IMG/VR virus record: IMGVR_UViG_3300045988_004573
Location: 32,001-96,000 of that record
From: a virus
Direction: 5' to 3' (one strand)
Length of the DNA stretch: 64,000 nucleotides
Shown here: one piece after another, positions 1,027 through 32,609 of the stretch
Position numbering within the stretch: the first letter of the stretch is position 1
Layout of the letters: every line of letters begins with the position of its first letter
The notes under the pieces: generated by a model
Seen by the model: only the letters and a program-made list of their open reading frames with translations
Told to the model about the DNA's origin: nothing
Databases searched by the model: none
Position numbers and translations under genes: made by a program

Positions 1027-2340
1027 ATGAGTGAAGAAGTAACTAATAAGGTAAGGGAGTTATATGACAACATCATGTACTTCCCTAATAAGGTTCTTAG
1101 CATATTCAATGACTTCTTTGGAGAACAGAGAGTGGATATGCAGGGATTCTGGGGCTTTGATGAGTTCCTACGTTCAATGTCTGAGGACAGGCTTAGTTCT
1201 TTCTTCTCCAGTAAGAGTGCTGTACTTAGTAGTCCAGAGTTCAGAAGTGCCAGTAAAGAGAATAAGGCTGTCATAGAAGATATGCTTGATAATGGTGCTT
1301 TGGATAGTGCTGTAACCAGTGATGAAGCACTTGCTACATACTTCCTACCTATAATGTTTACTGCTGTAATGCAGATTATGCCACAAGGCTTCATTCTTGT
1401 GCATTTCCCTCATGTAAGGGTTACTAATGAGAATGACAGGTTTGTGGATATAAACCATCTATGGGTTAAAGTAGGCATAAAGGCAAGTGGTGCAGGCATG
1501 GGTTACTTTGCTGTAAATAGGAGTGAGTATGAACTCTCTCATATGAAGGCAGACTATATGCACAGTCATGTACCAGGAATACCATTTGATAGGCTTACAG
1601 AGTTCAAGTCTCCTTGTCTGGGCAGTGGACCTATCAGAAGTACAGTAGCTACTCTTGCAGTGGAATATGATGAGGCTATATGGCAGTTGTTCTGTCTTGA
1701 ATTGGACAAGTATGTCAGGGTTGAAAGTATCTCTGGAGTACCTTACAGGTATCTGGAGAAGATAGGTACAGGTGGTGGTACAACTAATGGAGAGACTGAC
1801 TTCTCTATGCAGTCTACCACATTCAATGACTACAATACTATATTCTCTAAAGAGGATATGAAGGACTTCGTAAGGCATCTGATAAGAGACAAGAAACTCA
1901 AGTTCAACTTCATCAGAGGAAGCTATGGCTTTGCAATGTCCTACCTTGACTATAGAATACTCATTAGTAATGAGTTCATCAAGTGGTACAACCTGAGATA
2001 TAACTTAGGAACTTCTACTGCAAGTTATAATAACTTAGTTAGTAGGGGAATACTGAAAGAATGTATCATCAACAATGGTAAGATACAGTATTTCAGGAAC
2101 ACAGGGAGAAGTGGTGAGGACTATGGCAGGTATGAGGGTGCTGAGGTGTGTGTATTCAAAGGCAGACCTATCACCATACATATAGTGGATAGTTCTACTG
2201 ATACACTTAATAAAACAGTATTAGTCAGTGCAGGTATTGCTGAGGAAATAGCTAAAGCAGTGCTTACAATAGTAAATTACAAGTATGGAAGAGAACAAAG
2301 AGAAGAAGCTGGAATTAGTACACCAGCAATCTATCTATAA
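1027..2340 (+). CDS. Hypothetical protein; candidate E2/UBC-like fold in its central region
   Basis: The ORF-track start at 985 is a GTG inside the terminator, so the start was re-set to ATG 1027 (MSEEVTNKV). The central region reads as predicted strands (GFILVHFPHVRVTN, FVDINHLWVKVGIKA, GYFAVNRSEY), then YMHSHVPGI, then FKSPCLGSGP followed by a helix. This is reminiscent of the UBC HPN...Cys arrangement, but no motif is decisive. Confidence 0.7.
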   Translation: MSEEVTNKVRELYDNIMYFPNKVLSIFNDFFGEQRVDMQGFWGFDEFLRSMSEDRLSSFFSSKSAVLSSPEFRSASKENKAVIEDMLDNGALDSAVTSDEALATYFLPIMFTAVMQIMPQGFILVHFPHVRVTNENDRFVDINHLWVKVGIKASGAGMGYFAVNRSEYELSHMKADYMHSHVPGIPFDRLTEFKSPCLGSGPIRSTVATLAVEYDEAIWQLFCLELDKYVRVESISGVPYRYLEKIGTGGGTTNGETDFSMQSTTFNDYNTIFSKEDMKDFVRHLIRDKKLKFNFIRGSYGFAMSYLDYRILISNEFIKWYNLRYNLGTSTASYNNLVSRGILKECIINNGKIQYFRNTGRSGEDYGRYEGAEVCVFKGRPITIHIVDSSTDTLNKTVLVSAGIAEEIAKAVLTIVNYKYGREQREEAGISTPAIYL

Positions 2341-2341
2341 G

Positions 2342-3487
2342 ATGGTAATCCCTCAGGAGGTTGAGAAGAAGATAAGACTTCTGTGTAGGGAGATACACAA
2401 TGTGGAATGGTCTGGAGTACTGTTCTACAAGGTAAGTGGTTCATTTGAGGATAAGTCTTTGACAATCACTTGTGTAGACTTGTTCCAGATGGATGAAGGT
2501 ACTGGAGGATATACTGAATATGATATGTCCCCAGATGTCATGGGTTATATGGTAGACCATCCTGAGCTGCTTGATGCAGGTGTATATCAGGGACTTATCC
2601 ATAGTCATAACAACATGGCTACATTCTTTAGTGGTACTGATACAGCTACCTTGCAGTCAGAAGGCAGTGATATGAACCACTTTGTATCACTGATTGTGAA
2701 CAATGCTGGTAAATATACAGCAGGAGTGACTAGGAAGGCTAAGCTCAAACAGACAGTCAATGAGGAGTTCACCTATCCCACATGGGGTGATGAGAGAGTA
2801 TCTGGCAATAGAACCTTTACAGTAGAGAAGGAGTATATCCAATGGTTTAACCTTGACATTGAGATTGAAGGAGTCAGTAATGACTTTGAAGAGGAAATGC
2901 TTGCAAGGATTAAGGAGATTAGGGCAACTAAGTCTAGTAAGAGGAACATTGAGAATGTCAGAAGTCCTTACTATGGCGGAGGCTATAAGAAAGAGGAATA
3001 TGGCAAGCACCCAATAGGTTCTTATGGTAATCCTAAGGGATATACAGTACCTGCTGGACCAGCTAATACTCCTATCAAGAGAGAGGTTAAGCAACCTACA
3101 CTCTTTGATGATACTAATGAGGAGTTTATGATTGACTATGAGAAGTTCAAACTCAATGAGGAGATAGTGGACTGGGTGGTTAAGCAGACCATCACTTGTA
3201 GTGTAATCATTCCTAACTCCAGTAACATTGATGTAGAGAAGTGGGCTAGGTCTATGGATTCTCTGTATAAGAAGAGATTTGCAGATAAGAAGGAGTTTGA
3301 AGCCTTTGCATCAAACTTTGTAGACTTTGTGGTTAACTATACAGAAGACCCAGAGGCTGCTGCTTTCTTGGATGCTACAGAGATGGCTGCTGTATTGGCT
3401 TATCAGGTAAGAGAGAAACTGAACACCCTGCCTAAGAATGAATGGCTGGATGCTTGGATGGAATTGTATGATGATTATATACTGTAA
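2342..3487 (+). CDS. JAB/MPN (JAMM) metallopeptidase-domain protein with a roughly 250-aa uncharacterised C-terminal region
   Basis: The JAMM signature is complete: upstream Glu in HNVEWSGVLFY, then H-S-H-NNMATFF-S-GT-D (HxH-x7-S-xx-D) at nt 2600-2641. ATG 2342 lies 1 nt after the upstream stop; the track start at 2285 overlaps the previous gene. Confidence 0.85.
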   Translation: MVIPQEVEKKIRLLCREIHNVEWSGVLFYKVSGSFEDKSLTITCVDLFQMDEGTGGYTEYDMSPDVMGYMVDHPELLDAGVYQGLIHSHNNMATFFSGTDTATLQSEGSDMNHFVSLIVNNAGKYTAGVTRKAKLKQTVNEEFTYPTWGDERVSGNRTFTVEKEYIQWFNLDIEIEGVSNDFEEEMLARIKEIRATKSSKRNIENVRSPYYGGGYKKEEYGKHPIGSYGNPKGYTVPAGPANTPIKREVKQPTLFDDTNEEFMIDYEKFKLNEEIVDWVVKQTITCSVIIPNSSNIDVEKWARSMDSLYKKRFADKKEFEAFASNFVDFVVNYTEDPEAAAFLDATEMAAVLAYQVREKLNTLPKNEWLDAWMELYDDYIL

Positions 3488-3489
3488 GT

Positions 3490-4662
3490 ATGGAAGATAT
3501 AGTAAGTGAAGTAACTGCTCAGGCTCTTAATCAGTTAGCTGATAGAAGCGTAGAGCAGGCTCGTCAAGAGTTTGAAAGAGCTATGGAGGAAGATACCAAT
3601 GCACTTCCTATCAATGCCTTTGGTGGAACTCTGTCTCCTGTAGGTTCTGCTGGAGAGTTACACTATATATGTACTCTTCTTAGAGACCATAGGGCAGAGC
3701 TGTCAGTTGATGAATTGATAGATAGAGACAATCTTGTCTATAATGTGCAGATAAATGAGGAGAATGGTCAGCACCATGACTATTGGGTCAATGACTATTG
3801 GCACAATCAGTTACTCATAGCTGCTGGAGTTATGGATGAGGTAATGCCTGAGGAGGCTCAGTTGAGTCCAGAAGAGGAAGCAATGTTAGCAGCAGCATTG
3901 GAGAGTGAGCATCAAGAGATACCTGTAAATTCACAGACAATCACTGTAGATGAGACTACAAGTAGATTCAGTGGTGCTATATGGTATGAGCAAATACAAC
4001 AGCAGACTGTCACTTTGGCAGGTGTTGGAGGTATTGGCAGTTATGTAGGTTTCCTGTTAGGTAGATTGAAGCCTCAGAGACTTATCATATATGACCCTGA
4101 CAGGGTTGAGACTGTCAATATGTCAGGTCAGTTGTATGGTCAGACAGATGTTGGTAATTATAAGAGTTTAGCCCTTGCCAATATGGTCAGAAACTATGCT
4201 AACTATAACAATATAGTGGCATTGAATGACAGGTTTGAGGCTAACTCTGAGGCTACTGACATTATGATATGTGGCTTTGACAATATGACAGCCAGAAGGA
4301 CATTCTATGAGAAGTGGAAGCAGAAGGTACTGTCCTATCCTGCTGGTAGTGATAACAGGAAGAAGTGTTTGTTCATAGATGGAAGATTGGCAGCAGAAGA
4401 GTTCCAAGTACTGTCCATTCAAGGAGATGATGAAAGAGCTATGGTGGAGTATGAGGATAAGTGGCTGTTCAGTGATGCAGAAGCTGAGGAGACTATATGC
4501 TCCTATAAGCAGACTACTTTCATGGCTAACATGATAGCATCAGTGATGGTCAATGTCTTTGTGAACTTCGTGGCTAACCAGTGTGGTCCTATCATAGACA
4601 GGGATGTTCCTTTCTTCATATCCTATGATGCAAGTACAATGTTTACTAAAGTTGAAATGTAA
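3490..4662 (+). CDS. ThiF/MoeB/E1-like adenylyltransferase-domain protein with a roughly 160-aa unknown N-terminal region
   Basis: Rossmann loop LAGVGGIGSYVG (GVGGIG at nt 4021-4038). Also IIYDPDRVETVNMSGQLY (D-x-D-x-V-x3-N-x-x-x-Q of E1/ThiF, with the usual Arg replaced by Gly), GNYKSLALA, CGFDNMTARRTF (DN...R) and a downstream Cys in ETICSYKQTTF. The start lies 2 nt after the JAB stop. Confidence 0.85.
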   Translation: MEDIVSEVTAQALNQLADRSVEQARQEFERAMEEDTNALPINAFGGTLSPVGSAGELHYICTLLRDHRAELSVDELIDRDNLVYNVQINEENGQHHDYWVNDYWHNQLLIAAGVMDEVMPEEAQLSPEEEAMLAAALESEHQEIPVNSQTITVDETTSRFSGAIWYEQIQQQTVTLAGVGGIGSYVGFLLGRLKPQRLIIYDPDRVETVNMSGQLYGQTDVGNYKSLALANMVRNYANYNNIVALNDRFEANSEATDIMICGFDNMTARRTFYEKWKQKVLSYPAGSDNRKKCLFIDGRLAAEEFQVLSIQGDDERAMVEYEDKWLFSDAEAEETICSYKQTTFMANMIASVMVNVFVNFVANQCGPIIDRDVPFFISYDASTMFTKVEM

Positions 4663-5462
4663 TGCAAAGAGTGAGTAGTAGAATGAGTTATACTATTGAG
4701 CATATGTATAACTCAAGGGGAGATATAGCTCCCTATAGCAGTCCAGATGCTAGACTAGTCAATTACTCTATGCACACTGTGTTCCCATCATTCTTTAGGG
4801 TTTCCTTACAAGGAGATAAGATTGAGCTTCCTATATTTGCCAAGGAGTATGTGCAAGGCAAGCTCCTTGAAAGGTTGGAAAATAGAGGAAACCCTATGAG
4901 AAGAAGTGACATTATCATACACTTCCACATTGTAGAGAGTAACTATGCTCCCTATAGGACAGCAGATGCTTTAATCAGGAATCTGGTGGAGTTCAACTCC
5001 AGTAGAAGAGGTATGTATCTAACTGCCAGTACCAATAAAGGAGAGACATATCATGGATGTAATGGTACTATATTCAATAAGGATATGGTTCCACTTATTT
5101 TCAATGTCATAGAATGTGAGATTGTGGATAATACTCTTGTATATAAGAGAGTCAAGAGTTACATACATCCATCAGTATTCTATTCTGATGGTACTGTGGA
5201 GAAGTGTATAGCCAACAAGATTATCCCATTTGTCATGCAGAATGGTATAGAGATAAGACCCTATGACTCAAGGGTAGTTGATAACATCAGCTATGTGGGT
5301 ACAGGAAGAATCAGGAAGACTATACCAGAACTGTCAGTTGCCAATGTAGCTGACAGGTTCTTCTGTAAGCCTATTCTTCCCAGTGTGGCATATAGTGATG
5401 ATGACATCAATGATATGCTGAACAGGAACATTGATGATGTATTCAATATCATTGGGTTATGA
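4662..5462 (+). CDS. Hypothetical protein, the last unknown member of the JAB/E1 cassette
   Basis: 266-aa ORF. Its ATG overlaps the E1-like stop (TAATG), and its stop overlaps the UDG start (ATGA). No motif recognised. Confidence 0.7.
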   Translation: MQRVSSRMSYTIEHMYNSRGDIAPYSSPDARLVNYSMHTVFPSFFRVSLQGDKIELPIFAKEYVQGKLLERLENRGNPMRRSDIIIHFHIVESNYAPYRTADALIRNLVEFNSSRRGMYLTASTNKGETYHGCNGTIFNKDMVPLIFNVIECEIVDNTLVYKRVKSYIHPSVFYSDGTVEKCIANKIIPFVMQNGIEIRPYDSRVVDNISYVGTGRIRKTIPELSVANVADRFFCKPILPSVAYSDDDINDMLNRNIDDVFNIIGL

Positions 5463-6169
5463 CACTTGAGGAATACTTTGGTGATTGGCTTAGAGTGATT
5501 GACAGAGCAGAGTTGGATAAGGTATTGACACTCCTTAACAGGATGTATAGGGTAAAACCTATATGTCCTGCACAGGAGAATGTATTCAAGGCATTCAACT
5601 TGTGTAAGTACCGTGACTGTAAGGTGGTATTCATAGGTCAAGACCCATACCCTCAGAAGGGTGTGGCTACTGGCATATTGTTTGGGAATGATGCAAGTAC
5701 TAGAGAAGATGACTGGTCTCCTTCATTAAAAATTGTTAGAGATTCAGTTATAGACTTGCGCAGACCACATAATTTGATTACCTTTGACCCCACCTTAGAG
5801 TCATGGGCTAAGCAAGGCATCCTTATGATTAACTCTGCTTTGACCGCGGAGATGAATAAGGTAGGCTCACACACTATGTTGTGGAGACCTTTCATCTCAA
5901 AGCTGCTAAAGAAGATGTCTGAGTATGACACTGGTATGATATATGTGTTGTTTGGTGGTACTGCCCGTACCTTCAAGCCATATATAGGAAAGTATAATGA
6001 TGTGATAGAGATAGAGCATCCTGCATGCTTTGCAAGAATCAACCAAGACATGCCCTCAGATATATTCTATGAGATTAACAAACTATTAAAAGCAAGGTAT
6101 AACACCACTATTAAATGGTATGATGAGGAACAGTGCAATGGAGATATGGAAGAGTATAACAGGCTATGA
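5459..6169 (+). CDS. ung: Uracil-DNA glycosylase, family 1-like
   Basis: VVFIGQDPYP (water-activating GQDPYH-type motif), KQGILMINSALTAEMNKVGSH (compare UNG QGVLLLNxVLTV...SH) and IEHPACF (HPSP-like). Confidence 0.8.
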   Translation: MTLEEYFGDWLRVIDRAELDKVLTLLNRMYRVKPICPAQENVFKAFNLCKYRDCKVVFIGQDPYPQKGVATGILFGNDASTREDDWSPSLKIVRDSVIDLRRPHNLITFDPTLESWAKQGILMINSALTAEMNKVGSHTMLWRPFISKLLKKMSEYDTGMIYVLFGGTARTFKPYIGKYNDVIEIEHPACFARINQDMPSDIFYEINKLLKARYNTTIKWYDEEQCNGDMEEYNRL

Positions 6170-6635
6170 TAACTTATATGAAGTAAGTAACCTTGGTAGA
6201 GTAAAGTCTCTTAAGAGAGTACCTAATACTATCTTGAAACCGTCTAGTAATGGTAGGTATTTGCAACTAGTACTGCACAAGGATGGCAGTAAGAGTAAGA
6301 AATACATACACAGACTAGTGGCAGAGGCTTTTATATCTAACCCTTATGGCTTTTCAGAGGTAAATCATAAGGATGAGGACAAAACCAACAATAATGTATC
6401 TAACTTGGAATGGTGTGATAGCACATACAATAACACATATAATCAGAGACATATCAAATCAAGAGAGTCTTTGAAGAAACCAATTATAGTTAGAGATATT
6501 AGTGGGGAGATTATAGCGGAGTATTCTTCAATATCCCAAGCATCTATTGCTCTTAATATGGACAAGAGCAATATATCAAAATGCTGTAGAGGTGTTATGT
6601 GTTCCTATAAAAGTTTAACATTTTCCTATAAATAG
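6138..6635 (+). CDS. HNH homing endonuclease (NUMOD4-like N-terminus, HNH core, C-terminal helix-turn-helix-like module)
   Basis: WKSITGYDNLYEVSNLGRVKSL, then HRLVAEAF...VNHKDEDKTNNNVSNLEW (HNH-N), and a C-terminal YSSISQASIALNMDKSNISKCCRG. The start was re-set to the internal ATG 6138 (MEIWK), because the track start at 6120 overlaps UDG. Confidence 0.8.
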   Translation: MEIWKSITGYDNLYEVSNLGRVKSLKRVPNTILKPSSNGRYLQLVLHKDGSKSKKYIHRLVAEAFISNPYGFSEVNHKDEDKTNNNVSNLEWCDSTYNNTYNQRHIKSRESLKKPIIVRDISGEIIAEYSSISQASIALNMDKSNISKCCRGVMCSYKSLTFSYK

Positions 6636-6649
6636 AAGAAAAAAAAAAT

Positions 6650-7183
6650 ATGAACAAGTTGAAACTGAAAGAGACTGGTAAAGAAGTCAAGATGGGTGAG
6701 AAGCTCATCAAAGTTGTGGAATTGTTTGGCGTTCCTGTACCTGTAGCACAAGTAGAGGTCAATGAAACTACTCTTCCTGACCTTATCAAGCATGGTATAG
6801 TAGTAGCGGAGGGTTCTGATAGTGACATTGATGTTACTATTGAGAGTGCAGTACAGCATCTGGCTAATAGGATTGGCTGGAACAAAGAGAACCTTGAGAA
6901 GTACTTCAACAACCTCTATAAGATTAGCCCTGCTGCTGTCTTTGAGATTGTATTGAAGGAAGTGGCTATCCTGCTTGATGAGAGATACCCTGACCACATC
7001 AGCAACAGTAAGGAGATTTGGGTAATCAATAAGGTCAATGGAGAGATTCAGAAACTCAAAGACCTGAGCAAAATCAAGAGCTTCCAGCACTTTGCAGCAT
7101 TCAGAAGCCTTGAGGATGCTCTTGTAGCCAAGAGAGTGATGGCTCCTGCATTGAAGGACTTGTATGGAAAACAGAAGAATTAA
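6650..7183 (+). CDS. Hypothetical protein
   Basis: 177-aa ORF co-oriented with its neighbours and with a protein-like composition. It is preferred over the antisense 200-aa ORF at 6626..7228. Confidence 0.65.
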   Translation: MNKLKLKETGKEVKMGEKLIKVVELFGVPVPVAQVEVNETTLPDLIKHGIVVAEGSDSDIDVTIESAVQHLANRIGWNKENLEKYFNNLYKISPAAVFEIVLKEVAILLDERYPDHISNSKEIWVINKVNGEIQKLKDLSKIKSFQHFAAFRSLEDALVAKRVMAPALKDLYGKQKN

Positions 7184-7616
7184 AGGTGCTACGCCTTTAG
7201 TTGTTGATGACATCAAGTTTAAGTCCAAGATTGAGGCAAGTGTATATAAGCACTTGCTTCAAGCTGGATTTAACCCAGTGTATGAGGGTATGAAGTTCAC
7301 TATATGGAGTGGCTTCAAGCCTACAGTCCCATTCTATACAAGGATAGGGCGAAGCAATGGGCTTAATATGAAGAAAACTATAGACATCACCTATACCCCA
7401 GACTTTACATTCATGTATAATGGTAAGCTAATTATCATAGAGGTCAAAGGGTTACAGAATGATGTCTTTCCATATAAGTTTAAGATGTTCAGAGGTATGC
7501 TTGAGAGAGAACCTTATGTAGGCAATACCCTACTGTTTGAGATATTCAGCATCAAGCAACTAAAGGAGTGTATAGAAATCATAAAATCTTATGACTCCAA
7601 TACAAAGGCTAAATAG
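7164..7616 (+). CDS. DUF1064-like PD-(D/E)xK endonuclease, a possible junction-resolving or recombination nuclease
   Basis: N-terminal VVDDIKFKSKIEASVYKHL, then YTPDFTF...GKLIIIEVKG (D...E-x-K). This pattern is typical of the small phage DUF1064 nuclease family, as I recall it. Confidence 0.6.
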   Translation: MENRRIKGATPLVVDDIKFKSKIEASVYKHLLQAGFNPVYEGMKFTIWSGFKPTVPFYTRIGRSNGLNMKKTIDITYTPDFTFMYNGKLIIIEVKGLQNDVFPYKFKMFRGMLEREPYVGNTLLFEIFSIKQLKECIEIIKSYDSNTKAK

Positions 7617-7875
7617 TTTGGTAAAGTCATTCCCAGAGAAGGATAGGGAATTGATGCAGAAGATGTTAGATGAAAGGAAGTTTGAAGACTTGTGGGAACT
7701 TGTGAAGTCCTCTATCTATATGGTGAGGAAGTACAAGGACAAGTATGAGGCTGACCTTACTGACATGACTGTGTTCAAGTCTGAACTATCCTCCTATATG
7801 GACCAGTTAGGTCTGGGGGATGATGAGGAGTTTGAGGATGAGGAAGAAATGATTGACACTTATGAAGAGTATTAG
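7591..7875 (+). CDS. Hypothetical small protein with an acidic C-terminus
   Basis: 94-aa ORF ending in GDDEEFEDEEEMIDTYEEY. It is co-oriented with and overlaps both neighbours. Confidence 0.55.
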   Translation: MTPIQRLNSLVKSFPEKDRELMQKMLDERKFEDLWELVKSSIYMVRKYKDKYEADLTDMTVFKSELSSYMDQLGLGDDEEFEDEEEMIDTYEEY

Positions 7876-8899
7876 AGAACTGGCATGGAATGTGGATGAA
7901 CCAACCTATAGGGCTGATAGTGCTATAAGCTACTCAACTCTAAGCAGGTTTGAGAGGGAAGGATGGAGAAAGCTTGGCTCACTCTTTGATAAGATTGAGA
8001 CACCTTCACTCACATTTGGAAGTGCTGTTGATACTAAGCTGACTGATGGGGATGAGGCATTCAATGAAAGGTTCATTGTATGTGACTTCCCACCATTGTC
8101 AGATACATTGATAAGCATTACAAAGTTCCTCCACAAGAACTTCCATGAGAACCATAGGAAACTCAGCATGATAGATGATGCTGAGATAAGCAGGGCTGCA
8201 CTGATGTTCAACTATTATGCTAATCCCAAGTATGAGAACTTTAGGGTAAAGAGTATTAAGGAGAGCTGTGATGAGTATTACTCATTACTCACATTAGCAG
8301 GAGACAAGACTGTGCTATCACAGAATGACTATGCTGATGTAATGGCTTGTGTGGATGAGTTAAAGACCAATCCAGCAACCAAGTACTTCTTTAGCTCAAA
8401 TCCCTTTGAGACTCACATTGAGAAGGTGTTCCAGTTGAAGTTCAGGGCAGAGTTCCAAGGCATACCTGTCAGATGTATGTTTGATGAGATTATTGTAGAC
8501 CATGAGAAGAAGATGATATACCCTATAGACTTAAAGACCACAGGTCATCCTGAGGAAGAGTTTGAAGGGTCTTTCTCTCAATGGAGATATGATATTCAAG
8601 CCAAGTTATATACCTATATATTACAGGAGTGTATCAAGAATGATGAGTACTTCAAGGATTTCAAGATACAGCCCTATCAGTTTGTGGTTATAAACAGAAG
8701 GACTGTAGCTCCTATTGTATGGGTGTATGAAGGGAACTTTGGACAGGTAGACCTTAGAGATGAGAAAGGTAATATATTGAGGGATTGGAGGAAGATACTC
8801 GATGAACTCCATTATTACCTGAGATATGCTGGCAAGTACAGTATAAGGGCAATAGCAAATAACTGTGTATTAAAGATAAGTAATTTGACACCATGTTGA
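7862..8899 (+). CDS. RecB/Cas4-like PD-(D/E)xK exonuclease
   Basis: FGSAVDTKLTDG, MFDEIIVD...IYPIDLKTTG (D...D-x-K) and DIQAKLYTY (QxxxY). The track start at 7853 is TTG, so the start was re-set to ATG 7862. Confidence 0.75.
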   Translation: MKSIRELAWNVDEPTYRADSAISYSTLSRFEREGWRKLGSLFDKIETPSLTFGSAVDTKLTDGDEAFNERFIVCDFPPLSDTLISITKFLHKNFHENHRKLSMIDDAEISRAALMFNYYANPKYENFRVKSIKESCDEYYSLLTLAGDKTVLSQNDYADVMACVDELKTNPATKYFFSSNPFETHIEKVFQLKFRAEFQGIPVRCMFDEIIVDHEKKMIYPIDLKTTGHPEEEFEGSFSQWRYDIQAKLYTYILQECIKNDEYFKDFKIQPYQFVVINRRTVAPIVWVYEGNFGQVDLRDEKGNILRDWRKILDELHYYLRYAGKYSIRAIANNCVLKISNLTPC

Positions 8900-11052: not shown

Positions 11053-11491
11053 TACTAAGGTAGTCTTTGCAGAGATACCTGATGAGATAACTCTTGCCAT
11101 CAATATATCTAATTGTCCATGCCATTGTAAGGGCTGTCATAGTCCTTACTTGGCAGAGGATATAGGTACTGAACTTACTTTCAATGAGTTAAGAAGGTTA
11201 ATCAGGAATAACAGCGGTATTAGCTGTATAGCTTTTATGGGTGGTGATTCTGAGCCAGAGAGAATAGATGCTTTGGCTTCTTTTGTAACCAACCATTATC
11301 AATTGAAGGTAGCTTGGTATAGTGGTAGACAAGAGCTTAGTAAGGATATTGAGCTTAGGAACTTTGACTACATTAAACTTGGTCCATATATAGAGGAACT
11401 GGGTCCATTGAGTAGTAGGACTACCAACCAAAGACTCTATAGAGTAGAGAAAGAAGTGTTAATAGATATAACAAATAAGTTTTGGAAATGA
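11036..11491 (+). CDS. nrdG: Anaerobic RNR activating enzyme (radical SAM)
   Basis: NCPCHCKGCHSP contains CxxxCxxC. The protein is small (151 aa), has FMGGDSEP, and its gene overlaps the nrdD 3' end. Confidence 0.85.
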   Translation: MLKYVDTKVVFAEIPDEITLAINISNCPCHCKGCHSPYLAEDIGTELTFNELRRLIRNNSGISCIAFMGGDSEPERIDALASFVTNHYQLKVAWYSGRQELSKDIELRNFDYIKLGPYIEELGPLSSRTTNQRLYRVEKEVLIDITNKFWK

Positions 11492-11955
11492 AGATAAAAG
11501 TAAAAGAAATAACTGAGGGGTGCTTCCCTGTAAGGTCTAATGGTTCAGCATCAGATTGCTATGACCTGTTCCTTGCAGAGGATGTAACACTCAAGAAAGG
11601 TGAAATATATGTAGCCAAGCTGGGAGTAGCTATGGAGATGCCTAAGGGTATCATAGCTAGAGTATATAGCAGAAGCAGCTCTCCCAGTAAGTTAGGTATA
11701 GGAGTAGCCAATGGGTTAGGATTCATTGATACTGTCTATTGTGGAGACAATGACGAGTGGAAATGTCCTATCATAGCATATAAGGCTGTAACTATACCCA
11801 AAGGCACAAGAGTATGCCAGTTTGAGGTAGCTCCCTCACAGTTTGCCAAATGGCATCAGAAACTGAGATGGCTATTAACTACTCCTCTTCTGGAGCAGGT
11901 TGACCACCTTGGTAATGTAGATAGAGGGGGTATTGGGACTACTGGTACTAATTAA
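11488..11955 (+). CDS. dut: dUTP pyrophosphatase (trimeric dUTPase)
   Basis: RVYSRSS, GLGFIDTVYCGDNDEW (motif 3, G-x-ID-x-x-Y-x-G) and a C-terminal RGGIGTTG (motif 5). ATG 11488 overlaps the nrdG stop (ATGA); the track start at 11482 is TTG. Confidence 0.85.
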   Translation: MKIKVKEITEGCFPVRSNGSASDCYDLFLAEDVTLKKGEIYVAKLGVAMEMPKGIIARVYSRSSSPSKLGIGVANGLGFIDTVYCGDNDEWKCPIIAYKAVTIPKGTRVCQFEVAPSQFAKWHQKLRWLLTTPLLEQVDHLGNVDRGGIGTTGTN

Positions 11956-11969
11956 AACAAGTATGGAAC

Positions 11970-12470
11970 ATGGAATTTGTATTGAAAATAGTGTTTGTGT
12001 TGCTACTAGTAGGCATTGCTGCCATAGTAGCACATTTCGTTGATTTGGCTAGGAAGAAGATTTCCTATGATAGGATGTCATTCAGAGAGACTATGGACTT
12101 ATGTGAGCTTCCCATAGTAACATTTATGAATAATGGAAAGAAATTGAATTTCCTCTTGGACACTGGTGCAAGTAAATCTGTTATTCATAGTGGGGCTTTG
12201 GATGGGCTTACTTATAAGAGCCTCAATAAGTCTGGTGATGTATATGGTATAGATGGGAAAAGGCAAGATGCCTCATTTATCAGTATGTCTATAGGATATA
12301 GAGGTAAGGATTATAGTGAGGAGTTCCAATCTATTGATATGAGCATCCCATTCAGTAATCTAAAGTCTGACTTTGGTGTTAATCTGCATGGCATTCTGTC
12401 AAGTACTTTCTTTCAGAAGTATAGGTATGTACTGAACTTTGATGAACTGGTAGCTTATTCTATGGTATGA
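11970..12470 (+). CDS. Membrane-anchored retropepsin-like (clan AA) aspartic protease
   Basis: N-terminal hydrophobic helix (FVLKIVFVLLLVGIAAIVAHFV), then FLLDTGASKSVIHSG with D-T-G at nt 12159-12167, and a later HGILSSTFF (ILG-x-D-like). Confidence 0.7.
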   Translation: MEFVLKIVFVLLLVGIAAIVAHFVDLARKKISYDRMSFRETMDLCELPIVTFMNNGKKLNFLLDTGASKSVIHSGALDGLTYKSLNKSGDVYGIDGKRQDASFISMSIGYRGKDYSEEFQSIDMSIPFSNLKSDFGVNLHGILSSTFFQKYRYVLNFDELVAYSMV

Positions 12471-12736
12471 AAGACTTGATTAAACTTAAGTCAAGAGGCT
12501 ATGAGGAGAACTACTTGAAGAAGCTAAAGAAACCTGATGGTTCAGAGTCAAAGACTTATGTACTCAAGGTATCTACTCCCTATCTTAGATGTGGGGAAGT
12601 GGAAGGAGGCAGAAAGTTCATTGACCTATCAGGGGGTCCTATGATTGTAGTAGGTGCTTATCTTGAGGAAGCTGAGGCAGTAGTCAAATCAATAGACTTC
12701 ACTGTAGGTTATGGCTACACTATAACATTTGAGTAA
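12467..12736 (+). CDS. Hypothetical small protein
   Basis: 89-aa ORF with ATGA overlap upstream and TAATG overlap with the polymerase start. Confidence 0.55.
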   Translation: MKDLIKLKSRGYEENYLKKLKKPDGSESKTYVLKVSTPYLRCGEVEGGRKFIDLSGGPMIVVGAYLEEAEAVVKSIDFTVGYGYTITFE

Positions 12737-14857
12737 TGGATGAGTGGTTTGAAGAAGGAAAGCATGAAGCTATCAAGTACTATGGTGAGCAGATATACTA
12801 TGTGTCTGGAGTTGCAAACTTATTTAGTGATGCAGAGATAGGATGTCCTTATAAGAATATATCAGTAAGGGAATCACTGGAGCTTCTCAGTACACTAAAG
12901 GTTGTAGGATTGGATAGTGAGACTAGAGGTACAGAGATATGGCAAGGTCAGCTGCTGTTACTTCAATTAGGTAACAAGCACTTTCAAGTAGTCATTGACT
13001 GTACCACTGTAGATGTCAAGCTATACAAGGAGTTCCTTGAGAGTGATAGGCTTTTCATAATTCATAATGCCAAGTTTGACCTAAGATGGTTATATAAGGA
13101 GGGTATTGTAATCAGAAATGTATTTGATACTTTCCTTGCAGAGAAGATACTGTTCCTGGGATTTCCACCAGGAATAGTGTCACTCAGCTTGCAGGCTTGT
13201 TGTGACAGGTATCTTAATGTCTACCTTGACAAGACAGTCAGAGGTAAGATTAACTATGGTGTCACTGATGAGGTAATAATCTATTCAGCCAATGATGTTG
13301 TGTTCCTTGAAGATGTCATGGAAGCACAGTTAAAGCAGATAGAGGCTAGAGGTCAGAGAGTCGCCTTAGAGATAGAGAACAGGTTTGTGAGAGTATTGGC
13401 TTATATTGAGTTCTGTGGTATAAGGCTTGACATTGAAAGGTGGAAAGCCAAGATGGTTAAGGATGCTGAAAGGCTGAGAGTAGCAGAGCAGAAACTCAAT
13501 GATTGGGTTGTAGAGTATGTGATGTCCAAAGGAGACACAGATGCTATAGCCTATGATGTTCAGACTAAGAGAGGAAAGGTAAAGAGAGCTAAGGGTACTA
13601 TAGGTAAGTATGTAGCTATAGACCCACAGCAGAACCTCTTTGAGGAGAACAAGCCAAGATGTATCATCAACTGGAACAGTAACAAGCAGGTTATACCATT
13701 GTTTGAGGAGTTAGGGTTCAATGTATGGGCTAAAGACAAGAAGACTGGAAAGATGAAGAAGTCAGTAGACTCAAAGCTGCTTAAACAGCAGTTGGATAAG
13801 AGTCCTCTGGCTAAGTTATATCTTGATTACTCTGGTGAGTTCAAGGTAGTTACTTCATTTGGTCAGAACTTCTTGGATGCAGTCAATCCTGTTACAGGGA
13901 GAATACACCCTACATTCAATCAGATGATGGACACTGGCAGGTTGAGTTGTGGTAAAGGAGGAAAGAAAGGTGGAGGTAAGACTAAGGATGATGACTTTGC
14001 TGAGGAAGAGCAGACTGAGCAGGATGCTGATGTTATCATAGCAGTAGATAAGAGTGTGAATGTTCAGCAGTTGCCATCTGATGCAGAGACTAGAGCTTGC
14101 TTCATACCTGATAAAGACCACATGCTAGTTGATTGTGATTATGGAGACCAAGAAGGTCATGTCTTTACTGAGTTAAGTCAGGATAAGGCATGGATTGATT
14201 TCTATAATGACCCCAATGAGAGAGATGGTCACTCCTTTGTAGCCAAGATGATATTCTCTGATGAGCTAAAGGATATACCAGAGAAGGAAGTAAAGAAGAA
14301 GAGGAAAGACTTGAGGGATGCTGCAAAGCCAGCAAGGTTTACCTTTAATTATAATGGGACAGCCAATGCCTTAGCAGCTAACACAGGTAAGTCTCTTGAG
14401 TTCTGTGAGTTGTGCTTTAAGAAGTACTTCTCAGCATTCAAAGGTATAGCCAGCTACTTTAGAGTGAGTAAGGCTAATATGTGGAAAAGAGGTTATATCC
14501 TAATCTCAAAGTACACTGGACTGAGGGCTTACATCTATGACTATCCTATACTGAAAGGCATAGAGAGAAGAATCAAGAGAATGGGTCAGGAGTTCTGGGA
14601 TTCCTATAGGAAAGCCAGAGACTCTGGTCAAGTCATTGATGATGTCCCTGCTGTGGTTCTTCAACAGATGGCAAGGAAGTTTGCCAATGGAGAACCTATG
14701 GAGGCTATTGCTATAAGGTATGAGTATAAGGTCAAGAAGGGTAAGAAGATTGAGACAAAGTATATTGATATTAACAGGGAAACTGTATTGATTAAACTCT
14801 GGAAGCATCTGGCAAAGAGAAGGTCATCATCTGAGAACCAGTCCTGTAACTATCCCT
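12736..14857 (+). CDS. polA: Family A DNA polymerase with 3'-5' exonuclease, exon 1 (predicted 5' splice site after T14857)
   Basis: Exo I VVGLDSET, Exo II IHNAKFDLRWL, Exo III YSANDVVFL, motif A LVDCDYGDQEGH and motif B RDAAKPARFTFNYNG. The conserved N-x-P-x-QGTAAD block is cut after SCNYP, and the frame then ends in the non-conserved tail LIVGAYSGDII*. Confidence 0.85.
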
Positions 14858-14914
14858 TAATTGTGGGGGCATATAGTGGTGACATTATATGAAAACTCAG
14901 TGAATTGCTGGAAG

Positions 14915-15011
14915 GCTAAGGAGAAATCTATGCTAATCAGCAGCCAAGACTTGTAGAAATGCAAGTAAGGTTCAGAGACTAATCAAAGTAAGCTAAGGAG
15001 AAATCTATGCT
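14915..15011 (+). repeat. Perfect 20-bp direct repeat GCTAAGGAGAAATCTATGCT (14915-14934 and 14992-15011) inside the intron
   Basis: The two copies were read directly from the sequence. They lie 77 nt apart and flank the P7-like GGTTCAGAGACTAA string. Confidence 0.9.
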
Positions 15012-15081
15012 GAAATGGGCAAGAGTGCTGAGTATCTCTTAATTATTTATTTACCCTATTGGATAATTAAGAAATAATTTG

Positions 15082-15089
15082 TATCTTTG
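15082..15089 (+). promoter_or_regulatory. Bacteroidota-type -7 promoter box (TAnnTTTG) for the intron HNH gene
   Basis: TATCTTTG lies 25 nt upstream of ATG 15115. Confidence 0.5.
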
Positions 15090-15114
15090 TACTATAAATT
15101 AAAGATAACAAATT

Positions 15115-15690
15115 ATGAAGAGATGTTCAAGTTGTGGTAAGTTAAAGGATGAATCAGAGTTTTATCATTATAAGTCATCAAAGGATGGCTTGACTCACCA
15201 GTGTAAGCAATGTATGTCTGAATATAGGGCTTCTAAAAGAGAGCATTATAAAGAGTATATGGCTTATAGGAGAGAGGTGGATAATGAAACTATAAAAGCT
15301 AATAGGAGAAAGCATTATAGGAATCATCCTGAGAGTAGAATGTTAATGGCAGCCAAGCAAAGAGCTAAGAATCAAGGATTAGAATTTAACTTGACTATAG
15401 ATGATATAGTCATCCCTGATAAATGCCCTTTGTTAGAAGTTCCTTTTGTTGCTGGAGAAAAAGGTAATTATGAATATACACCCTCCCTTGATAGAATAGA
15501 CCCTACTAAGGGATATATTAAAGGGAATGTATGGGTAATTACTAAAAGAGCAAATACAATGAAGAATAATGCAACAAGGGAGGAATTATTAAAGTTTGCT
15601 GATAACATCTATAAATATTTTGGAGATAATGATATAGTCCAACCTATTGAGAAATCAATAGAACTACAGGATAAAGAGCCTGTAGGGTAA
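15115..15690 (+). CDS. Intron-encoded HNH homing endonuclease with an N-terminal zinc finger
   Basis: CSSCGK...HQCKQC, CPLLEVPF, and SLDRIDPTKGYIKGNVWVITKRANTMKNN (H-N-N type core). It is a paralog of the 20570..21115 gene and sits between the two polymerase exons. Confidence 0.85.
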   Translation: MKRCSSCGKLKDESEFYHYKSSKDGLTHQCKQCMSEYRASKREHYKEYMAYRREVDNETIKANRRKHYRNHPESRMLMAAKQRAKNQGLEFNLTIDDIVIPDKCPLLEVPFVAGEKGNYEYTPSLDRIDPTKGYIKGNVWVITKRANTMKNNATREELLKFADNIYKYFGDNDIVQPIEKSIELQDKEPVG

Positions 15691-15699
15691 TAAATATTG

Positions 15700-15953
15700 C
15701 ACAAGGTACAGCAGCAGCTATGACTAAGATTGCTGGTATAATGTACTTTGACTACTTGGTAGAGTCAGGACTTATATTCAAGGTATTGATACCTAATGAT
15801 GTCCATGATGAGTATCTGATAGAACCACCTACTGATATAGCTGAACAGGAAGCTAGGAAACTTAGTGAATGTATGGAAGCATCAGCAGCTATGTTCTGTC
15901 AGTCAGTCAAGATTAAGGCAGTTCCTGAAATTGCAGACCATTGGGTGCATTAA
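15700..15953 (+). CDS. polA: Family A DNA polymerase, exon 2
   Basis: In frame upstream of the track ATG (15720) the sequence reads QGTAAA with no start codon, completing the polymerase QGTAAD block. It continues MTKIAGIMYFDYL...IPNDVHDEYLIE (motif C, VHDE) and ends ADHWVH* (compare Pol I ...W-x-x-AH*). Confidence 0.8.
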
Positions 15954-31500: not shown

Positions 31501-32609
31501 AGAGGTTCAATGTTCAGAACAACCTAGATACTGAGACTAGAAACTGGAGTACTAGAGAAAGCAGACTCACTAGGCTTAACCCATTTGGTAATAACCTAAT
31601 GTTGCCCTATAAGAGTGGAGACCATTATATGCAGTCTATGTCCTACTTGGCAGCAGCTAACCATTATAAGTTCTTAGACACTAATGGAGAGACTATATCA
31701 CTATGGGATGCCCTAGAAGTGAAGAACATAGATGATAGTAACCCTAAAGCTGGTAGGACATTAGAGCTTAAAGAAGGAGTACTATATATAGACCCTGAAA
31801 CTAACCAGACTAGAGAATGGAATCTTGATGATGAGGTTAAATTCCAGAACCTATGTAGAGAGACCAACAATAGAATGCACGGTATCTATAACAGAATGGA
31901 TAAGACAGCCTTCCATAACACTTGGTATGGTCAAGCTGCTTTAGCCATGAGAGGTTATGCACTTGGTCTATTATATAGAAGATTCTCTTCTAACCACTAC
32001 AGTGTGTCTTTAGGTAGAGAGTCCGAGGGAAGCTTAGTTACAGCATCAAAGGTATTTGTCAATATGTTTGGAGGTACTAAGAACTTCATTCCATCCCTCA
32101 GAGCATTGCTATGCCCCTTTGGTGATAGTGTAAAGAACTCATTACTTGAGATGGGCTTCTCAGTGGAGCAGTATAGGAATATGAGAAGAAACTGGGCTGA
32201 CTTTGCTCTTATAGGTATGTTATGGGTACTCAAAGCACTCACAGCTAAGTCTGAGGATGACGATGATGATGACGATGATACAACATCAGGACTCATATAT
32301 TACTTTGCAAGTAGGTTGTACATGGAACAGAATGCCTACAATACTCCTTGGGGTATATGGCAGGAGCAAAAGAGTGTGTTAGACTGGATGCCTAGTGGTG
32401 TATCAGTAGCAGGTCAAATACTTGATATAAGTAGACTTATGATTACTCAAGAGGAGTATAAGACTAGTTCAGCTACCCATGAGAAAGGAGATAAGAAGTG
32501 GGAATATAAGATTGGCTCATATATACCTTACTACAGGAGTACAAGGGTATTAGAGCATCCTTATGAAGCAGCTAAGTCATATGAATATGGTAGAGCTACT
32601 TATAAGTAA
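28503..32609 (+). CDS. Large virion-associated protein co-transcribed with the RNAP, possibly an ejected or cargo protein
   Basis: 1368 aa from ATG 28503 (the track start at 28494 is TTG). Coiled-coil-rich, with a glycine-zipper-like hydrophobic segment (VIGFFGGLASKVFLGGNVAGGMVNVMTGF) and a poly-Asp run at nt 32256-32279. Confidence 0.7.
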   Translation: MAESCVFKPTVRNKEGKEVNSRLFDNLLHFSSNDREFAKKYYFIGTNDEFLRTNARHVEYDENGEITFKSLKNLVSLDISSEKIIDQLNKDISSGEHEYGEAVSLMTSFNNNSPYNDEYMATISTVEGGKANLQVVRKTTANQTALEETLTNKSLFDRIKQAVERVGGSIDFIDESYSKYDTINAKKAESGLYNVIFLSKKGNLTADMAEEAGHFAVGALGNNPLVKRLEALCTPEVQEGILGEHYRDVQGRKNPRRETAGFLVGQYIMNEVDQESTLSRLAGRIVNLAKRMFYRLTLDDVGRMREEAKAIAKNIARGFMSGDNAGSIENALENREVLYSSVDSVPVSSFKDVIQQLNLLASEMSAVDKTLYRKWKDIEANTAIGRLFENPSFFADMAAIDGLSVALTQLADSVPEMIDMLDSVNYNPDEVPANAKKLRQVSLFVQESIAIMGIIDNMLTSDEVQLKEDARDALDKAYKNLSSLIKGADKLEVNLLKKERKLYLSFLKDMYGGEYVERAARVVFNFNKRKLERVAESREYLSKAMESLDRDDNFMNRYIASMANSSDIINQLAYKTKASANKFADDNTIKAWNDIRALEQRVKKAKVDTRRLLEVSARDGKLTGNYISKYNWGDWENDWYEFKNKCKEDFLSDPSIESKTQIEREYLWDVYFRPLAKDWHKSHSTYDQTTQRPMPNDGYRNHNYDRLTDTEKAALDDILELKGSLDDLLIYQSYNGEMVEAAHTHLYRMPQFRGSTQNRIENLKMTNPLGKAVSGAIRQNLINTFTITSEDRDYGSAMTHNTIDEDVFSDRLDFEKEKVKRVPLYGINKLKDMSELSTDIFNGLLQYAAMANTYVATSSVVDILETGRDVLANRRVKGLKREVERDKKSRVFGRYCDFLDAQVYNLYANSRLKFGQIALTKVIGFFGGLASKVFLGGNVAGGMVNVMTGFNEITKEAIAGEVYTLADLTKANALYFKYLPENWLEAGMGVKNNKVSLFMKRFNVQNNLDTETRNWSTRESRLTRLNPFGNNLMLPYKSGDHYMQSMSYLAAANHYKFLDTNGETISLWDALEVKNIDDSNPKAGRTLELKEGVLYIDPETNQTREWNLDDEVKFQNLCRETNNRMHGIYNRMDKTAFHNTWYGQAALAMRGYALGLLYRRFSSNHYSVSLGRESEGSLVTASKVFVNMFGGTKNFIPSLRALLCPFGDSVKNSLLEMGFSVEQYRNMRRNWADFALIGMLWVLKALTAKSEDDDDDDDDTTSGLIYYFASRLYMEQNAYNTPWGIWQEQKSVLDWMPSGVSVAGQILDISRLMITQEEYKTSSATHEKGDKKWEYKIGSYIPYYRSTRVLEHPYEAAKSYEYGRATYK

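Follow-up and report, generated by a model that had tools for sequence, protein, structure and literature searches.

No phages are more abundant in the human gut than crassviruses, and for most genes of their replication modules annotation is the only source of understanding. The locus described here raises the question of what a protease of retroviral type is doing in such a module, between the genes for dUTPase and DNA polymerase. It lies in a stretch of 64,000 nucleotides (hereafter the window; positions 32,001 to 96,000 of IMG/VR virus record IMGVR_UViG_3300045988_004573) that belongs to a crass-like phage of the family Steigviridae, subfamily Asinivirinae. The gene occupies positions 11970-12470 of the plus strand, as do, at their own positions, its parts and the flanking genes mapped below; it has an ATG start and encodes 166 amino acids, and its product is almost certainly a small enzyme resembling HIV protease that is tethered to the host cell membrane on the inner side. 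The extent of the open reading frame (ORF) and its place between dUTPase and polymerase, as confirmed by ORF, Pfam and PHROG analyses, are exactly those described in a first-pass annotation that had been made from the sequence alone.

The ORF is a real gene rather than a chance one, since it has 348 close homologs in a collection of 5.8 billion proteins, an exhaustive profile search recovers, with E<=1e-3, 1,733 clusters formed at 50% identity, of which 214 reach E<=1e-30, and the ratio of nonsynonymous to synonymous substitution (dN/dS) is 0.09-0.14 against three close relatives. The gene is under strong purifying selection, and proteins in nearly all of the clusters are 160-170 amino acids long. 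The surrounding region is about 76% identical in nucleotide sequence to the uncultured phage cr126_1 (Kolpuevirus) and matches the crAss001-type Bacteroides phages more weakly; a near-identical IMG/VR contig, L007, carries a protease that is 97% identical. The crAss001 ortholog is gp66 (AXQ62709.1; 57% identity over the full length), which has been labelled 'aspartyl protease' in GenBank since 2018, and this label recurs in the records of cr126_1, IAS virus and cr116_1 as well as in some 40 further GenBank records of crassviruses. Identification of this family as a protease is therefore not new, and the gene, which the first-pass annotation had considered unexpected in a phage replication module, is present in every Steigviridae genome examined. 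The window protein itself is a new sequence variant from an uncultured relative of these annotated orthologs. As a discovery this is modest, because both the family and its protease nature are already in the public annotation. In the literature that we searched we found no account of what gp66 or other aspartyl or retropepsin-like proteases of crassviruses do, and no aspartic protease with an established role in any tailed phage.

The retropepsin domain

Profile searches, an AlphaFold (AF2) model and Foldseek comparisons agree in a manner that leaves us with very little doubt that residues 35-166 (12072-12467), which include the conserved segments MSFRETMDL at the N-terminal and LVAYS at the C-terminal end, adopt a single-lobe retropepsin fold; AF2 secondary structure, conservation and alignment to HIV-1 protease all speak for the lobe. 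The window protein matches Pfam families PF13650 (Asp_protease_2; 25.7 bits, cut-off 24.3) and PF00077 (RVP; 21.9 bits, cut-off 20.7), marginally in both cases, and Asp_protease_2 also matches 55 of 58 divergent family members with E<=1e-3 (best 6.2e-9). There is no PHROG family for the protease. When a profile of the family is compared with the PDB it finds the FIV, EIAV and HIV-1/2 proteases at 1.3e-7 to 1e-4, FIV protease being the best at 1.3e-7, in an alignment that spans the active-site loop and the flap and sets 'giegnk' opposite the FIV flap 'GIGGGK'; residues 44-81 align without gaps to residues 5-42 of HIV-1 protease. The AF2 model, built from a 42-sequence alignment with a mean predicted local distance difference test score (pLDDT) of 87.3, consists of a helix at residues 2-30 followed by a beta-rich domain. 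The best 50 Foldseek matches of this model in the PDB are exclusively retroviral proteases and Ddi1 RVP domains, with the top matches, to HIV-1 and FIV proteases and Ddi1 RVP, having a probability of 1.00 and template modelling (TM) scores of 0.60-0.72 normalized to the target.

The catalytic elements are found where this fold requires them. The motif FLLDTGASKS occupies residues 61-70, within which L62-L63-D64-T65-G66-A67 constitute the hydrophobic-hydrophobic-Asp-Thr/Ser-Gly-Ala/Ser signature, and the triad D64-T65-G66 (12159-12167, with D64 encoded by nucleotides 12159-12161) aligns to D25-T26-G27 of HIV-1 protease. A flap-like beta-hairpin is formed by residues 82-110 (12213-12299), with AF2 strands at 82-92 and 98-110 and the glycines G93 and G96 at its tip. 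The third motif, H140-G141-I-L-S-S (12387-12404), is recognized by its conservation and modelled as a strand at 141-143 that is followed by a short helix at 145-150; L139-H140-G141 is the counterpart of the hydrophobic-Gly 'IGRN' element, and GILSSTFF corresponds to residues 141-148. The protein thus has the features by which clan AA is recognized, namely the single-lobe fold, the active-site signature, the flap hairpin and the third motif with its helix. The single retroviral-type lobe and the two motifs that had been read from the sequence at first pass are accordingly upheld.

Conservation follows the same pattern. D(T/S)G is retained in all 151 family representatives (132 DTG and 19 DSG), which answers the question raised at first pass of whether the DTG is conserved among homologs, and the triad is invariant in the 42 close homologs. 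The predicted retropepsin lobe and this conservation are the two points on which the first-pass reading could have failed, and both came out in its favour. Among the 58 divergent members, which are 29-50% identical to the query, P48, D64, G66, G141 and F147 are invariant and T65, G93, H140, L143 and Y163 are at least 90% conserved, and in alignments of close homologs G93 and G96 are invariant, as are S37, F38, E40, D43 and L44 near one end of the domain and L160, A162 and Y163 at the other. The segments S37-L44 and L160-S164 are highly conserved and stand at the positions of the strands that make up the dimer interface in retropepsins. This is consistent with homodimerization through interleaved N- and C-terminal strands, which we would expect of a single-lobe enzyme of this type, and the protein is likewise predicted to hydrolyse peptide bonds in an Asp-dependent manner.

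Membrane anchor and predicted topology

The N-terminal transmembrane helix that had been proposed is well supported. It comprises about residues 3-24, FVLKIVFVLLLVGIAAIVAHFV (11976-12041), with a Kyte-Doolittle mean of 2.97 over 19 residues, and falls within the AF2 helix of residues 2-30. Using a threshold mean of >=1.6 over 19 residues, a comparable N-terminal hydrophobic helix is found in 134 of the 151 representatives. In the window protein it is followed by a basic juxtamembrane segment, DLARKKISYD (residues 25-34; 12042-12071), and the corresponding charge bias is a property of the family, with a mean of 0.12 Lys/Arg before the helix as compared with 4.0 in the 15 residues after it. According to the positive-inside rule, such a distribution of charge marks an N-out/C-in anchor and is opposite to that of a signal peptide. 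The basic segment therefore sets the predicted topology, in which the N-terminus is most likely outside and the protease domain on the cytoplasmic side, not turned towards the envelope. Cleavage of host envelope proteins, which the first-pass annotation had suggested following, is consequently not the most likely activity.

In retropepsin dimers such as that of HIV protease, the N- and C-termini form a base on the side opposite the flaps, so that an N-terminal anchor would keep this base against the membrane, with the cleft accessible from the cytoplasm. Seventeen representatives do not have the helix, and 16 of these have no export signal either. Eight of the helix-less N-termini were checked and found to be basic and amphipathic, with hydrophobic moments of 0.43-0.77 (>=0.6 in six of the eight), and in this they resemble peripheral membrane-targeting helices; others of the 16 look like truncated gene calls or have weaker hydrophobic segments.

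Conserved gene order and middle expression

The protease gene occupies a constant position. Upstream of it in the window is the dUTPase gene (11482-11955; Pfam dUTPase 2.8e-8, PHROG 135 at 1e-26), and downstream the gene for a family A DNA polymerase (PolA), of which exon 1 extends from 12736 to 14857 (Pfam DNA_pol_A 1.6e-29 with a 3'-5' exonuclease domain), its end being set by comparison with the intron-less allele of L007. Across 93 crass-like loci dUTPase is found upstream in 89, the shortfalls being at truncated contigs, and PolA downstream in 92, and the order dUTPase, protease, DNA polymerase is retained wherever the contig allows; it is still seen where protease identity is as low as 25-32%, namely in IAS virus, cr116_1, Dulem virus 41 and cr108_1. 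Annotated phage records with a homolog number 49, and all of them are either Steigviridae/Asinivirinae or unclassified relatives with the same layout, and matches in bacterial genomes are either to crass-like contigs binned into metagenome-assembled genomes or to distant (25-33% identical) chromosomal Flavobacterium proteins.

The polymerase in this arrangement is less constant than its position. Two loci, L114 and L116, have a PolB-type polymerase gene at the same place (5402-7279 and 5471-8160 of these contigs, respectively). Its product matches PHROG 1252 at 5e-147 and, weakly, E. coli Pol II, and contains the motifs DxxSLYPS and NTDG. Among loci L001-L093 PolA alleles that are 31%, 38%, 78% and 98% identical adjoin proteases of similar identity. 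The polymerase gene has thus been exchanged in place while the protease stayed, which argues against a partnership specific to the polymerase.

Information on the timing of expression is available for crAss001, in which the crAss001_66 transcript increases from 10 to 30 min by log2 +10.4 and +9.0, together with those of gp64 (labelled 'DNA polymerase I'; +10.9/+8.8) and gp65 (+12.1/+9.1), and with gp68 (dUTPase) behaving alike (PMC8375218, supplementary file 2, sheet Fig. 4b). In the same experiments the rise comes at 10 min for early genes and at 60 min for the major capsid gene (PMC8375218). The crAss001 protease ortholog is therefore a middle gene, switched on at 10-30 min.

Relation to known proteases

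The closest counterparts of the window protein are crAss001 gp66 and its Steigviridae orthologs in IAS virus, DAC15/17, cr85_1, cr106_1, cr126_1 and the PhiCrAssBcn phages, which have the same helix-plus-lobe architecture and the same slot between the dUTPase and DNA polymerase I genes, with no substantive difference. With the retroviral proteases (MEROPS A2: HIV-1/2, FIV, EIAV) it has in common the single-lobe fold, the signature, a flap with a glycine tip and the hydrophobic-Gly third motif, at about 20% identity. Unlike them, it is encoded by a free-standing gene and carries its own membrane anchor instead of being excised from a polyprotein, and it has an extra helix (residues 125-135), as Ddi1 does. 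The order dUTPase, protease, polymerase is reminiscent of betaretroviruses, and we considered whether the three genes form a retrovirus-like cassette of common origin; this was rejected, and the resemblance is coincidental, since the window dUTPase is nearest to Bacillus YncF/YosS (1e-28) rather than to retroviral dUTPases (FIV dUTPase, 2.5e-5). The RVP domain of Ddi1, which is cytoplasmic and also has an inserted helix, is among the best structural matches (3s8i, 5yq8, 4z2z; TM-score about 0.51 normalized to the query), but sequence identity is only 8-13% and the phage protein has no ubiquitin-like, HDD or UBA domain. With a helix and a protease lobe and no other Pfam domain, it does not qualify as a Ddi1-like shuttle protease.

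The best full-length profile match is to PADLOC PDC-M08B, with residues 37-162 aligned to positions 4-123 of 127 at 6.8e-6, and this profile matches 57 of the 58 family members (best 2.2e-11). PDC-M08B belongs to a multi-gene candidate for phage defence that is unvalidated and on which no paper was found in the literature searched; its 127-position profile contains no membrane helix, and the gene described here stands in the replication operon of a lytic phage and not in a bacterial defence island. A complete PDC-M08 system, for which both A and B components are required, was considered and rejected for this phage, there being no PDC-M08A among the matches listed for 50 window proteins (25 of 36 matched families). 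The similarity is a lead towards a role in exclusion or defence, and does not amount to membership.

Retropepsin-like lobes are also known from prokaryotes, in Rickettsia APRc, Pseudomonas RimB and Caulobacter PerP. APRc is membrane-embedded, and in RimB, a homodimer of the cytoplasm, the catalytic Asp has been proven (PMC11957791). APRc is not among the PDB matches listed (best 50 by Foldseek; profile E<=0.01), and a single N-terminal N-out anchor of the kind predicted here occurs in none of the bacterial retropepsin-like proteases compared. The chromosomal Flavobacterium proteins share the motif KLNFLLDTG with the phage protease and are 28% identical to it in their first lobe. Proteins of this type are conserved in Bacteroidota chromosomes and about 436 amino acids long, and are secreted pseudo-dimers in which a signal peptide precedes two retropepsin-like lobes (NFLLDTG and NFLVDTG), with a PDZ domain at the C-terminus; the loci are among L094-L113, for example L099 5887-7197 (Flavobacterium croceum DSM 17960) and L113 6163-7314. 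It may be that a two-lobe protein of this sort was the host-lineage source of the phage gene.

Proposed role and alternative explanations

We propose that the gene encodes a small clan AA retropepsin-type aspartic endopeptidase in which a transmembrane helix at the very N-terminus is joined by a short basic linker to one protease lobe with a single catalytic aspartate. Two copies would have to pair for activity, as in HIV protease, with D64 of each chain contributing to an active site beneath two flap hairpins. The helix would insert N-out/C-in and so place the dimer at the cytoplasmic face of the host inner membrane, with the base of terminal strands against the membrane and the cleft opening to the cytoplasm. 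Its expression would fall in the middle phase, from the operon that also supplies dUTPase and DNA polymerase, and its targets would be a small number of specific membrane-proximal proteins, perhaps only one, that belong to the host or to a competing phage and not to the virion. We regard this overall picture, of a homodimeric, membrane-tethered aspartic endopeptidase that is made with the replication genes and acts at the cytoplasmic face on membrane-proximal host or competitor proteins, as the probable one, and hold it with moderate confidence; our confidence in any particular substrate is much lower.

Several observations weigh against this proposal and account for our caution. The Pfam scores of the window protein itself exceed the cut-offs by only 1-1.5 bits, and the score against NCBIfam TIGR02281 (clan AA DTGA subfamily) is 17.0 bits, below the cut-off of 57.95. 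The structure predictions are of single chains, and the topology is derived from the positive-inside rule alone. The protease sequence gives no pointer to any substrate, and there is no experiment on any member of the family in the literature searched. The distant chromosomal relatives in Flavobacterium are secreted, and in one family representative, P0208 (235 amino acids), the helix is replaced by a signal peptide of lipoprotein type with a linker, which would export the domain.

These last two observations are the ones to be expected if the helix were a type II signal anchor (N-in/C-out), or were exported in some other way, and the protease acted in the periplasm on envelope proteins, as the first-pass annotation had implicitly assumed, and the PDZ domains of the signal-peptide-bearing Flavobacterium relatives are indeed typical of periplasmic proteases. 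In P0208 (L117 1831-2538) the signal is MKKNVVLITAFTVAISIVGC and the low-complexity linker is about 80 residues long. It is a singleton, however, known from one cluster and one contig of 2.6 kb, on which the adjacent genes (OST-HTH and rotamase) are unrelated, and its nearest relative, from L116, has a domain that is 90% identical and an ordinary helix; P0208 is therefore either a genuine exported variant or an assembly chimera. Since the charge bias of the family around the helix is the reverse of that in a signal peptide or type II anchor, and 16 representatives are without any hydrophobic export signal, we consider a periplasmic protease unlikely. A different view of the anchor is that it is temporary, with self-cleavage at the conserved M-S-F-R/K-E junction (residues 36-40) yielding a soluble cytoplasmic dimer. 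Retropepsins generally autoprocess, and retroviral proteases free themselves from Gag-Pol in this way. Rickettsia APRc does so too (cited in PMC11957791). S37, F38 and E40 are invariant or nearly so and lie directly N-terminal to the protease core, and the natural helix-less variants start a few residues before the MSF(R/K)E motif. The same residues, however, occupy the position of the N-terminal dimer-interface strand, which explains their conservation without cleavage, and as there is no direct evidence for processing we find this proposal doubtful.

For the membrane-tethered cytoplasmic enzyme that we favour, a specific version of its substrate is offered by the relationship to PDC-M08, in which the protease would be a phage-carried exclusion or defence factor that destroys superinfecting-phage proteins, such as ejected cargo or RNA polymerase, as they arrive at the cytoplasmic face of the membrane. 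That PDC-M08B is the best full-length match, and matches nearly the whole family, speaks for this, and middle-phase expression and membrane location fit it; yet PDC-M08 is itself an unvalidated candidate with no paper found, PDC-M08A is not among the matches listed for 50 window proteins, and the similarity may reflect no more than the shared retropepsin fold, so that we would give exclusion only a small chance. Somewhat more broadly, and still speculatively, this could be the first phage aspartic protease in phage-host or phage-phage conflict, related to PDC-M08B and cleaving either membrane-associated host proteins or those that superinfecting crassviruses eject. We rate this as rather unlikely; if true, the protease would contribute to the unusual persistence of Steigviridae in Bacteroides populations. 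The invariant slot directly upstream of the polymerase gene, whichever family that polymerase belongs to, could alternatively indicate a protein without catalytic function, an anchor or scaffold by which the DNA polymerase or replisome is held at the membrane. Such a function would not need the catalytic elements, every one of which is conserved in 151 of 151 representatives; moreover, crassvirus gene order is conserved generally, which makes adjacency weak evidence, and polymerase alleles (PolA at 31-98% identity) have been swapped beside an unchanged protease, so a scaffold seems very improbable. To our knowledge no prohead protease is annotated in these genomes, and a capsid or virion maturation protease was considered for that reason. 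It was rejected, as close to untenable, for the protein is membrane-anchored and restricted to one crassvirus family, and its gene is a middle gene of the replication operon and not a late one; this timing and the crAss001 structural atlas, which makes no mention of proteolytic processing of virion proteins, both speak against maturation.

Identification of the substrate of the proposed cytoplasmic-face protease would reveal a step in crassvirus infection, be it host takeover, exclusion or organization of the replication complex. The present analysis contributes a corrected prediction of topology, cytoplasmic rather than envelope-facing, and the removal of a wrong label from the neighbouring gene.

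Neighbouring genes

The gene that follows the protease (12467-12736) encodes an 89-amino-acid protein, the ortholog of crAss001 gp65, and is tightly linked to the genes on both sides: the protease stop overlaps its start in an ATGA at 12467-12470, and its own stop overlaps the polymerase start in a TAATG at 12734-12738. Translational coupling, as noted at first pass, is thereby borne out. The protein has 1,049 homologs with dN/dS of 0.16-0.26, and an AF2 model of high confidence (pLDDT 94.9) has eight strands and no helix. It has no Pfam match, no PDB sequence match and no PHROG family, and Foldseek finds no fold match in the PDB (best E 0.6, TM-score below 0.4); in BFVD the matches are its own ortholog, with a propagated label, and more weakly a small ORF at the same position in cr108_1. 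The label in question, carried by public orthologs (crAss001 gp65; e.g. L001 6094-6411), is 'muconolactone isomerase'. We reject it, as the model is all-beta and not of the ferredoxin-like alpha+beta type and there is no support from the Pfam MIase family, the PDB or Foldseek, and it appears to be a propagated error; to judge from the model, the protein would be an orphan all-beta fold.

The first-pass annotation had further suggested that this protein is a partner or substrate of the protease. The 89-amino-acid gene is present in 86 of the 93 crass-like loci, and the protease is kept without it in IAS virus, cr116_1, Dulem virus 41, L088, L093, L114 and L116; since several lineages have the one without the other, it is not an obligatory partner or substrate. 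Having neither signal nor helix, it is presumably cytoplasmic, like the predicted protease domain, and it could be a regulator, inhibitor or substrate of the protease.

The same module contains, 7 kb upstream of the protease, an adjacent pair of JAB-like and ThiF-like genes (2285-3487 and 3490-4662, both +), orthologous to crAss001 gp77 ('metalloprotease domain') and gp76 ('ThiF'). The JAB-like gene scores 20.8 bits with Prok-JAB, under the cut-off of 25, and the ThiF/E1-like gene 61 bits (cut-off 28); one window protein, most likely the latter, matches the PADLOC CBASS-type 'E1-E2' models at 2e-11. The two may work together in conjugation or deconjugation of a ubiquitin-like kind. We considered a link between this pair and the protease, on the model of Ddi1 and ubiquitin, and found no evidence of a functional connection.

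The DNA polymerase I gene is split by a group I intron of 842 nt (14858-15699), which matches Rfam RF00028 at 14848-15081 with 65.3 bits (gathering cut-off 50) and bears an ORF for an HNH/EndoVII-type homing endonuclease at 15115-15690; exon 2 of the polymerase runs from about 15700 to 15953. The L007 allele has no intron and is contiguous exactly across the 842-nt insertion, encoding a polymerase of 791 amino acids. Similar splits occur in the polymerases of cr116_1 and Dulem virus 41 and in the PolB of L116. Further, free-standing homing endonuclease genes are present in the replication module, among them one with NUMOD4 and HNH_3 domains (6120-6635, +), and the PADLOC 'HEase' model matches three window proteins.

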